10,294 bases of DNA from a virus: the UHGV virus genome UHGV-1838671; one strand, given 5' to 3'. The translations under genes were made by a program, and so were the position numbers. A model generated the notes under the pieces. That model saw only the letters and a program-made list of their open reading frames with translations. It was not told the DNA's origin and searched no databases. Positions 6,860 to 7,675 of this stretch are shown piece after piece. Position 1 is the first letter of the stretch, and each line of letters starts with the position of its first letter.

Positions 6860-7675
6860 ATGAGCAGACATGCAACAGATTGGGCCTGGGAGACAGATCC
6901 AGGTAGCTCGTCATTAAAGCTCATACTGCTCTCGATGGCTGACAGAGCCGATGAATATAACCTCTGCTACCCCAGCATAGAACGCCTCGTTAAAGACACT
7001 TGCCTGAATAAAAAAACCGTGCAGGCCGGGCTTATATCGCTCATGAAAATGGGTCTTATTTCAGATACCGGAGAGAGAAAGGGGGCGACGAAAAGAGTAC
7101 GGGTTTTCTCTCTTAATATAACCAAAAACGGGAACATTAAAGGCGACCGGGAGGGGGGTAATGAACCCGAAAACGGTAATGAACCCGAAAACGGGAATAT
7201 ACCCAAAAACGGGATGTTGAATGATCCCAAAAACGGGATGTTGAATGATCCCAAAAACGGGATCCAGAACCAGTCATATAACCAGTCATTTAACCAAGAG
7301 AGGGAGAGCAGGACAAAAAACGGGGATTCTGTGCATCATGACCCCGGCGCAAACAACGCCGTGATGAATAACTTTGTTCCTCCTGGTGGGCCAGGGCAAT
7401 TAGGCAAATTTGTCATGCATGAACAATGGCAACCATCAGATGACTTTCTTCGGAAAAGCTCATTGCAGGGGATCTACCTGGACAGTCTGCCAACGGCACA
7501 GGAACTTGCAGAGTTCAGAATTTACTGGATGGCTGAGGGTAAGGCATACCATCAGGCACAGTGGGAGCAGAAGCTGGCAAGGCGGCTGCAGATTAGCAGA
7601 CAGAAGCAATCAACATTATCTGATAACAACGTTCCGCACTGGAACAGCCCTGAAGCATGGGAGGATTTCTTGTGA
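6860..7675 (+). CDS. Replication initiation protein (O-like role): N-terminal HTH domain plus DnaT-like C-terminal domain, with an internal low-complexity linker
   Basis: 271-aa ORF, ATG at 6860 with GGAG 7 nt upstream. N-terminus LKLILLSMADRADEYNLCYPSIERLVKDTCLNKKTVQAGLISLMKMGLIS fits the replication-initiator HTH pattern. C-terminus (WQPSDDFL...AEFRIYW...QAQWEQKLARRLQ) resembles DnaT-like domains. The linker is encoded by the iteron array. Confidence 0.8.
   Translation: MSRHATDWAWETDPGSSSLKLILLSMADRADEYNLCYPSIERLVKDTCLNKKTVQAGLISLMKMGLISDTGERKGATKRVRVFSLNITKNGNIKGDREGGNEPENGNEPENGNIPKNGMLNDPKNGMLNDPKNGIQNQSYNQSFNQERESRTKNGDSVHHDPGANNAVMNNFVPPGGPGQLGKFVMHEQWQPSDDFLRKSSLQGIYLDSLPTAQELAEFRIYWMAEGKAYHQAQWEQKLARRLQISRQKQSTLSDNNVPHWNSPEAWEDFL
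7122..7325. repeat. Iteron-like direct repeat array inside the replication initiator gene; candidate origin of replication
   Basis: Core CC(C)(G/A)AAAACGG(G) at 7122, 7166, 7184, 7202, 7226, 7250 and about 7313. Includes exact 18-bp duplicates (7158-7175 and 7176-7193) and exact 24-bp duplicates (7211-7234 and 7235-7258). Followed by a 12-bp tandem AACCAGTCAT(A/T)T at 7268-7291. Confidence 0.6.

Follow-up and report, generated by a model that had tools for sequence, protein, structure and literature searches.

Short repeats that lie in the middle of a coding region raise the question of whether they are kept for the DNA that they constitute or for the peptide that they encode. Such an array is found in a viral DNA of 10,294 nucleotides from UHGV virus genome UHGV-1838671 (this whole stretch is referred to below as the window), where it lies within the open reading frame (ORF) of a phage replication initiator. 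The answer that we favour, and that comparative sequence analysis makes quite probable, is that this array is the initiator-binding part of the replication origin of a prophage, embedded in the initiator's own gene.

A search with the core pattern CCMAAAACGG, allowing at most one mismatch, gives seven matches in the window, all on the plus strand (at 7122, 7167, 7185, 7203, 7227, 7251 and 7314), compared with 1.49 expected by chance and a number that none of 200 dinucleotide shuffles reaches. Four of these cores are exactly CCAAAAACGG, two are CCGAAAACGG and the one at 7314 is CAAAAAACGG. Tandem Repeats Finder resolves the same region into an 18-bp unit (3.1 copies at 7157–7212, with copies 1 and 2 being 100% identical), a 24-bp unit (2.6 copies at 7202–7263, 100% matches) and a 12-bp unit (2.4 copies at 7268–7296, 94%). 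Core spacings are 45, 18, 18, 24, 24 and 63, each a multiple of three, and the array is read in frame within ORF 6860–7675, the product of which contains TKNGNIKGDREGGNEPENGNEPENGNIPKNGMLNDPKNGMLNDPKNGIQNQSYNQSFNQ, with the array peptide running NEPENG-NEPENG-NIPKNG-MLNDPKNG-MLNDPKNG-IQNQSYNQSFNQ. Pattern count and Tandem Repeats Finder thus confirm the positions of the repeats, the exact 18- and 24-bp units, the 12-bp tandem and the common frame, all of which had been described in an earlier, sequence-only reading of this DNA. As DNA, every site combines dyad symmetry with a central A-tract (CCC-AAAAAC-GGG, CCCG-AAAA-CGGG or GATCCC-AAAAAC-GGGATC), and the best dyad is that of the last central site (7247–7264), an 18-bp near-palindrome of the GATCCC-AAAAAC-GGGATC type with 12/18 symmetric positions. 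CCCN6GGG is absent from the window outside the array, and since the motif is confined in this way, the sites are not of the operator type.

Could such an array be an ordinary in-frame tandem repeat of a low-complexity linker, created by replication slippage and, if maintained at all, maintained for the peptide N-x-P-K/E-N-G and not for any function of the DNA? Its copies in the window all share one frame, several are exact duplicates suggestive of recent slippage, copy number is highly polymorphic and the encoded linker is predicted to be disordered; the window alone, with its single frame and its exact duplicates, indeed cannot separate constraint on the DNA from constraint on the protein. 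Codon usage, however, does not fit easily with this explanation, as the array consistently uses the rare codons CCC and GGG: all five proline codons of the array are CCC, whereas CCC is the rarest proline codon elsewhere in the window (10/101).

Variation among close relatives also speaks to this issue. Eight fetched variants and 76 IMG/VR copies were compared (a scan of viral contigs gave 80 near-identical loci, which are informative for copy number only). Gene length ranges from 792 to 888 nt, and the eight variants contain two to five copies of the 18-bp unit, one to three of the 24-bp unit and two or three of the 12-bp unit. In the IMG/VR copies the central array comprises three to eight cores, with at least three always being retained, and the architecture of the window is the modal one (53/76); nine 24-bp units occur in one database protein. 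Repeat number therefore does vary between related prophages, as had been predicted, and it does so by 18- or 24-bp steps. Polymorphism of the sites themselves was scored on the 41 distinct sequences of modal architecture; grouping by gene length mixes architectures that happen to be equally long. Not one of the 60 positions in the first six cores is variable in these sequences, whereas the spacers do vary (at 7145–7159, 7177, 7181–7184, 7195 and 7202), a pattern of invariant cores and variable spacers that speaks against a repeat kept for its peptide. The outlying copy at 7121–7132 is equally invariant in the modal sequences and is mutated in one of the other variants (L007, CCAAAAAAGG). By contrast, the seventh core (7314–7323) is polymorphic, with position 7320 being A, G or C in 12, 15 and 14 of the 41 sequences, respectively, and further variation in L003, L005 and L007. 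Thus, seven matches to the core are present as had been counted, but the seventh, which also has little dyad symmetry, is probably non-functional and should be dropped from the iterons.

Evidence on what is conserved also comes from distant relatives, which were collected by tblastn on records of phages and by a scan of genomes, one per species; the scan provided 65 further loci with 36–87% identity in the N-domain. In tblastn, the N-terminal ~150 residues, including the repeat segment, recur at 40–51% identity with different C-terminal regions, and phages sharing these residues include Edwardsiella phage GF-2, Vibrio anguillarum phages, Acinetobacter phages and PPompW prophages. In all distant relatives, the repeats follow directly after the winged helix and have the core CCC-(A/T-rich 6)-GGG. 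Across the 65 loci, CCCN6GGG occurs at 3.68 per kb in the linker-coding segment (gene nt 230–560) and at 0.094 per kb elsewhere, and a stricter motif at 5.2 versus 0.068 per kb, so that the density of the dyad CCC-W6-GGG in the linker-coding segment is ~40–77 times that outside of it, with shared ancestry inflating all of these enrichment figures. The word CCCAAAAACGG is read as PKNG, (S/T/P)QKR or PKT(D/E) in L097, L099–L101, L108, L113, L114 and other loci, with L114 alone encoding PKNG, PQKR and HPKTD, i.e. one DNA word in several frames. Among the plus-orientation sites, 27/116 lie outside the Pro-x-x-Gly frame (~2 expected by chance), at least two frames are used in 15 of the 28 genes that have at least two sites, and one site (in L105) is even inverted. 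Where the frame is kept, the residues between proline and glycine are chemically unrelated (KN, KI, EN, IY, KF, NF or EI), while the DNA stays CCC-W6-GGG. The occurrence of one DNA word in three reading frames (PKNG, QKR and PKT) argues for selection acting on the DNA of the array and not on the peptide; a peptide-level explanation does not fit. With unrelated peptides encoded by the same word and the dyad maintained while the encoded residues change, the notion of a mere coding repeat is largely refuted and we consider it very improbable.

The 12-bp tandem, which the sequence-only reading had listed together with the core copies, is indeed present but is not part of the iterons; it represents a separate DNA element that is found throughout the family. 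Its consensus is 3 x RGAAYCNNNCA with a period of 12/13. In 52 of the 68 family genes a CAGAAYC anchor lies directly 3' of the array and is followed by two or three tandem RGAAYCNNNCA units. These units occur in more than one reading frame in 33 of these 52 genes (e.g. QNLP-KNLP-IES or QNQS-LEPV-IEP), and this element, too, is therefore conserved as DNA. In many relatives an A-rich tract such as AAAAATAAAAA comes after the 12/13-mers, with a downstream AT content of 0.62–0.72; at the 12-mer element of the window AT content is 0.56–0.60, as compared with 0.75 in the AT-rich tract of phage lambda. The 12/13-mers may be an unwinding element or a second binding element.

Across the family, the sites are linked to the N-terminal domain of the initiator. 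Their arms differ by N-domain subfamily, i.e. CCC/GGG, GTACC/GGTAC, GTCCCA-ACAA-TGGGAC, GTCGGA-AAAA-TCCGAC (in Sphingobium) or CCCGAAC-GTG-GTTCGGG (in Desulfovibrionaceae), and N-domain, array and downstream repeats stay together where the C-terminal domain changes. Phage SPN1S, a member of the same genus that shares the DnaT-like C-domain, has a different N-domain and unrelated repeats (GTCCGC/GCGGAC); in this Salmonella phage they form two clusters inside the initiator gene (1083–1134 and 1362–1402), which are probably its own embedded binding sites. Edwardsiella phage GF-2 is a natural hybrid, in which the N-domain, three 24-bp CCCAAAATTGGG units, the 12/13-mers and an A-rich stretch are joined to a C-terminal half that shares 62% identity with lambda O (E 2e-67). 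Its DNA homology to lambda starts at GAGAATTCTGRCGAATCCTC, immediately past the lambda iterons and AT-rich tract, and from the position of this junction it follows that the cassette takes the place of the left part of ori-lambda. Since array and 12/13-mers are found at the junction of one N-domain with different C-terminal domains, the conserved short sequences, in particular CAGAAYC after the array, might alternatively mark the borders of modules and favour recombination between mosaic phages, rather than being parts of an origin. Conservation spans genera of very different base composition, however, and repeated dyad-symmetric units with arms that co-vary with the N-domain would not be expected of a mere recombination joint, so we give this idea little credence.

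How does this arrangement relate to the protein? That the ORF encodes a replication initiator, as had been assumed, is corroborated by PHROG 1032 ('replication initiation protein'), which covers it end to end (E 3.5e-108), by Pfam matches to HTH_36 (aa 18–67, E 1.8e-10) and DnaT (aa 184–251, E 1.4e-15) and by the gene for a lambda-P-type helicase loader coming next. In RefSeq, a 100% identical copy is labelled 'DnaT-like ssDNA-binding domain-containing protein', and a phmmer search against the PDB finds its last 80 residues to be homologous to the C-terminal domain of E. coli DnaT (4ou6, 4ou7, 6aep, 2ru8 and 9zbt, E ~1e-19). AlphaFold2 models aa 1–89 confidently as a winged helix, with a predicted local distance difference test score (pLDDT) of 82–90 and the topology H-H-H-H-E-E, and predicts the linker (aa 90–180) to be disordered, with a pLDDT of 24–34; the C-domain is modelled poorly, owing to a shallow alignment. 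With this N-domain model, the best Foldseek matches are dimeric winged-helix regulators and N-domains of plasmid Rep proteins (5kbj, 4pt7 and 4pql), which at E >= 3.5e-3 suggests a weak likeness to generic winged-helix DNA binders. The dyad symmetry of the sites would fit a dimeric winged helix. The five to six conserved sites at 7121–7264 lie between the winged helix (aa 1–89) and the DnaT-like domain (aa 181–262), and domain matches and pLDDT profile together place the repeats in the linker between the two domains of the initiator, i.e. in a disordered segment whose DNA can carry sites at little cost to the protein.

This is reminiscent of lambda and Stx phages, in which the location of the origin inside gene O is a textbook architecture, with four iterons in lambda and six in Stx phages (PMC7466680). 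In lambda, too, repeated dyad-symmetric sites with a central A-tract lie centrally in the initiator gene, between the parts encoding the N- and C-terminal domains (PMC7466680), the gene for a P-type helicase loader comes next and iteron number varies between relatives. The annotated lambda iterons lie in frames 0, 2, 2 and 1, i.e. their DNA is kept irrespective of frame, and the half-site flavour ATCCC...GGGAT of the lambda iteron (ATCCCTC-AAAAC-GAGGGAT) resembles the sites in the window. The earlier proposal of a lambda-like origin within the initiator gene is thus upheld by the position of the repeats in the inter-domain linker and by their DNA-level conservation in relatives. There are also clear differences. 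The core in the window has 12 bp (CCC-W6-GGG, extending to at most 18 bp in GATCCC-N6-GGGATC) rather than 19 bp, spacing is 18/24 rather than 20–24 bp, the N-domain belongs to Pfam HTH_36 and not to Phage_rep_O (PF04492), the C-domain is DnaT-like, unlike that of lambda O, and three 12-mers stand in place of a marked AT-rich tract. An HHpred match to HTH_36 has been reported for lambda O itself (PMC5509034), and a distant relatedness of the two N-domains seems possible.

If the array is the initiator-binding part of an origin, initiation may proceed as follows. Dimers of the N-terminal winged helix would bind to the five, perhaps six, CCC-W6-GGG sites at 7121–7264 and form an O-some-like nucleoprotein complex on bendable, A-tract-containing DNA, which would then destabilize the adjoining triple 12-mer segment (7265–7300). 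The DnaT-like C-domain could hold the resulting single-stranded DNA and/or serve as a docking site for the neighbouring lambda-P-like loader, which would deliver the host's DnaB. In-frame gain or loss of 18- and 24-bp units would alter the number of iterons. Sequence comparison shows the layout of the locus, the constraint on its DNA, the tie between sites and N-domain and the homologies of the domains, whereas binding, unwinding, recruitment of the loader and origin activity are inferred from it.

Several points weigh against this interpretation, in addition to the common frame of the window's own copies and the shared ancestry behind the enrichment figures. The array in the window has no marked AT-rich neighbour, with 40-bp AT maxima of 0.68 upstream and 0.60 downstream versus 0.75 in lambda. 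Spacings of 18 and 24 bp do not correspond to whole helical turns. An hhalign comparison of the N-domain with the N-terminus of lambda O was not significant (probability 3.7%). Finally, no description of the phiV10/epsilon15 origin, of the motif or of HTH_36 iterons was found in the searchable literature, which is incomplete. It is also conceivable that the repeats are genuine cis-acting sites whose role is not, or not exclusively, that of an origin, i.e. that they act as an autoregulatory element or transcriptional roadblock on initiator and loader genes, in handcuffing or copy control, or as sites for host factors. DNA-level conservation demonstrates a cis function without specifying which one, a clear AT-rich unwinding tract is missing from the window, the 24-bp units contain GATC, and regulated expression of the initiator is suggested by an independent RNA hairpin that covers its ribosome-binding site. 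Yet the GF-2 hybrid has its array in the position equivalent to that of the lambda iterons, the conserved adjoining 12/13-mers and the A-rich tracts in relatives make up a full origin-like anatomy, and no other repeat array or candidate origin was found in the replication module. A purely or partly non-origin role is therefore rather unlikely in our view, and we continue to favour an origin.

Beyond lambda, a close parallel is the DopC/DopE pair, a domesticated O-like plus P-like pair of Cellvibrionales and Oceanospirillales, for which a protein with HTH_36 and DnaT_C was termed O-like (Brezellec et al. 2017, PMC5509034). Here, too, a protein with an HTH_36 N-domain and a C-terminal DnaT motif is encoded directly upstream of a protein of the lambda P family (PMC5509034). 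However, DopC is chromosomal, located outside of a prophage and reported to be without iteron-like sequences (PMC5509034), whereas the gene in the window is part of a prophage and contains a full array, with the appearance of a DopC-type gene that has not been domesticated. With iteron plasmids (RepE/mini-F, pi/R6K, RepA/pPS10 and TrfA/RK2) the array shares the principle of four to eight direct repeats read by a winged-helix initiator, along with the weak resemblance of the N-domain model to Rep N-domains (5kbj and 4pt7). Plasmid iterons, however, lie outside of rep and have ~17–22 bp on a ~22-bp period; their initiators usually bind as monomers, and DnaA boxes and AT-rich repeats adjoin them. 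The sites in the window are inside the gene, dyad-symmetric and spaced with periods of 18/24 bp with no DnaA box nearby, and the array does not fit a plasmid iteron origin. E. coli DnaT is homologous to the C-terminal 80 residues (E ~1e-19 to 4ou6, 4ou7 and 6aep); it functions in PriA-dependent restart and has neither a sequence-specific domain for binding double-stranded DNA nor iterons.

More tentatively, and with considerable doubt, one may ask whether array and triple 12/13-mer (RGAAYCNNNCA) represent a widespread and so far undescribed class of phage origins in the form of one portable cassette. Such a cassette may combine a winged-helix domain with the iterons belonging to it and with a second-site or unwinding element, all hidden in the coding region for a disordered linker, and may have been moved between different C-domains that recruit the helicase, in a range from Enterobacteria to Acinetobacter, Vibrio, Desulfovibrio and Sphingomonads. 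If so, the 12/13-mers may work as a single-strand or unwinding element with sequence specificity, comparable to the 13-mers of oriC or to DnaA-trios, rather than just as AT-rich DNA.

An origin within an initiator gene is an architecture already known, and the present finding is sound but unsurprising; the comparative sequence evidence that argues for its interpretation is strong. The parts most worth following are the family-wide motif rule and the 12/13-mer element. Dyad repeats right after an HTH_36 domain, followed by three 12/13-mers, could flag origins in many unannotated phages. Phages of the phiV10 type that carry this initiator gene are used as O157 reporter phages, and the location of the origin would provide a handle for phiV10-based replicons. 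Knowing an origin together with its specificity determinant helps to predict replication incompatibility or interference between co-resident prophages. In addition, the array exemplifies a cis-acting site hidden in a coding region and is a source of frameshifted or truncated gene calls, and a phage form of the gene pair that does have an array fits with the reported lack of iteron-like sequences in the domesticated DopC relatives.

Table 1. Coordinates of the initiator gene, its repeat elements and the adjoining loader gene in the window.
Feature	Position	Strand	Remarks
Initiator gene	6860..7675	+	271 aa; winged-helix N-terminal domain, disordered linker, DnaT-like C-terminal domain
Winged-helix N-domain coding region	6860..7126	+	aa 1–89; presumed iteron reader
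Outlying iteron-like copy ACCAAAAACGGG	7121..7132	+	45 bp 5' of the array
Central iteron array, five dyad-symmetric sites	7157..7264	+	spacing 18, 18, 24, 24 bp
Central site CCCGAAAACGGT	7166	+	
Central site CCCGAAAACGGG	7184	+	
Central sites CCCAAAAACGGG	7202, 7226, 7250	+	
Second repeat class, three tandem 12-mers CAGAACCAGTCAT / ATAACCAGTCAT / TTAACCAAGAG	7265..7300	+	candidate unwinding or second binding element
Degenerate seventh copy ACAAAAAACGGG	7313..7324	+	one core mismatch; 4/18 dyad symmetry
DnaT-like ssDNA-binding C-domain coding region	7400..7645	+	aa 181–262; phmmer against the PDB
Lambda-P-family helicase loader gene	7672..8457	+	Pfam and PHROG; alternative ATG at 7657

The window represents a phiV10-like (Uetakevirus) prophage located beside guaA, with genes for integrase, RecT, repressor and terminase. 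The initiator gene is part of its immunity/replication module, with a divergent repressor gene and small early genes upstream; it is 100% identical to a gene of E. coli 85.0412 and 96.5% identical to that of phage phiV10, and is found in 424 of 5,426 complete E. coli genomes. The product of the following gene matches Pfam Phage_lambda_P (PF06992, E 1.5e-56) and PHROG 109 ('P-like helicase loader', E 3.7e-92) and is called 'replication protein P' by RefSeq in an identical genome. Its annotated GTG start codon overlaps the stop codon of the initiator gene (GTGA, 7672–7675), which implies translational coupling of initiator and loader, as for lambda O and P. The putative repressor (5524–6108, minus strand, 194 aa) has two helix-turn-helix (HTH) regions, one YdaS-like (aa 21–61) and one of the HTH_3 type (aa 106–147); a tandem-HTH immunity repressor is unusual, and the same feature is mentioned in the annotation of phiV10.

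Just 5' of the initiator gene, a small conserved ORF (6644–6844, plus strand; PHROG 1081, function unknown), which also occurs in phiV10 and epsilon15, encodes a Cys/His-rich product (C-x2-H ... C-x2-C) with weak similarity to an endonuclease VII PHROG (E 4.7e-4). Between 6810 and 6863, a perfect 11-nt inverted repeat (TCATGATTAAT / ATTAATCATGA), extended by CUCC:GGAG, is predicted to fold in the mRNA (-17.2 kcal/mol, z -2.67) and would mask the initiator's Shine–Dalgarno sequence (6846–6849) and start codon (6860). This hairpin is kept in phiV10 but neither in Superficieibacter nor in more distant relatives. Its left arm falls within the last part of the small ORF, which suggests that initiator synthesis is translationally coupled or controlled.

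Within the array itself, three GATC (Dam) sites occur within 40 bp (at 7223, 7247 and 7261): each 24-bp unit contributes one, and another belongs to the terminal palindrome GATCCC...GGGATC. The GF-2 units likewise contain GATC; an influence of methylation or SeqA on the origin is a possibility. AT skew at 7100–7350 is +0.36 to +0.44, the highest within the examined 5–9 kb stretch, with the A-rich strand being the coding strand. No DnaA boxes are found near the array, the sole consensus match in the window being at 8960–8968, which corresponds to chance level, and an Rfam search gave no match. Two candidate signals were rejected: terminator-like hairpins on the minus strand of the 24-bp units arise from the dyad repeats as such and do not rise above background, and at a potential -1 frameshift site, CCCAAAA, the heptamer is out of the X XXY YYZ frame in the window.

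With the 90-aa N-domain as a query in a homologue search, only short fragments and frameshifted products were returned, and with the full initiator only close E. coli length variants. Many database 'proteins' of 57–158 aa (P0005, P0010, P0015, P0022 and others) are N-terminal fragments that shift frame in the A-run repeats and end, for instance, in NPKTVMLPKTGIYPKTGC; frameshifts, be they errors or real, cluster in the array, and so do truncated gene calls. The phiV10-type initiator/P module is also present near the end of the record of 'Escherichia phage BP9' (a Vequintavirus of 138 kb; L006, PP488543.1, 134937–135728) and in the unannotated 115-kb 'phage PH444' (PP350014.1, 91284–92099), and in both cases looks like the result of chimeric or contaminated assembly rather than a genuine part of the genome.

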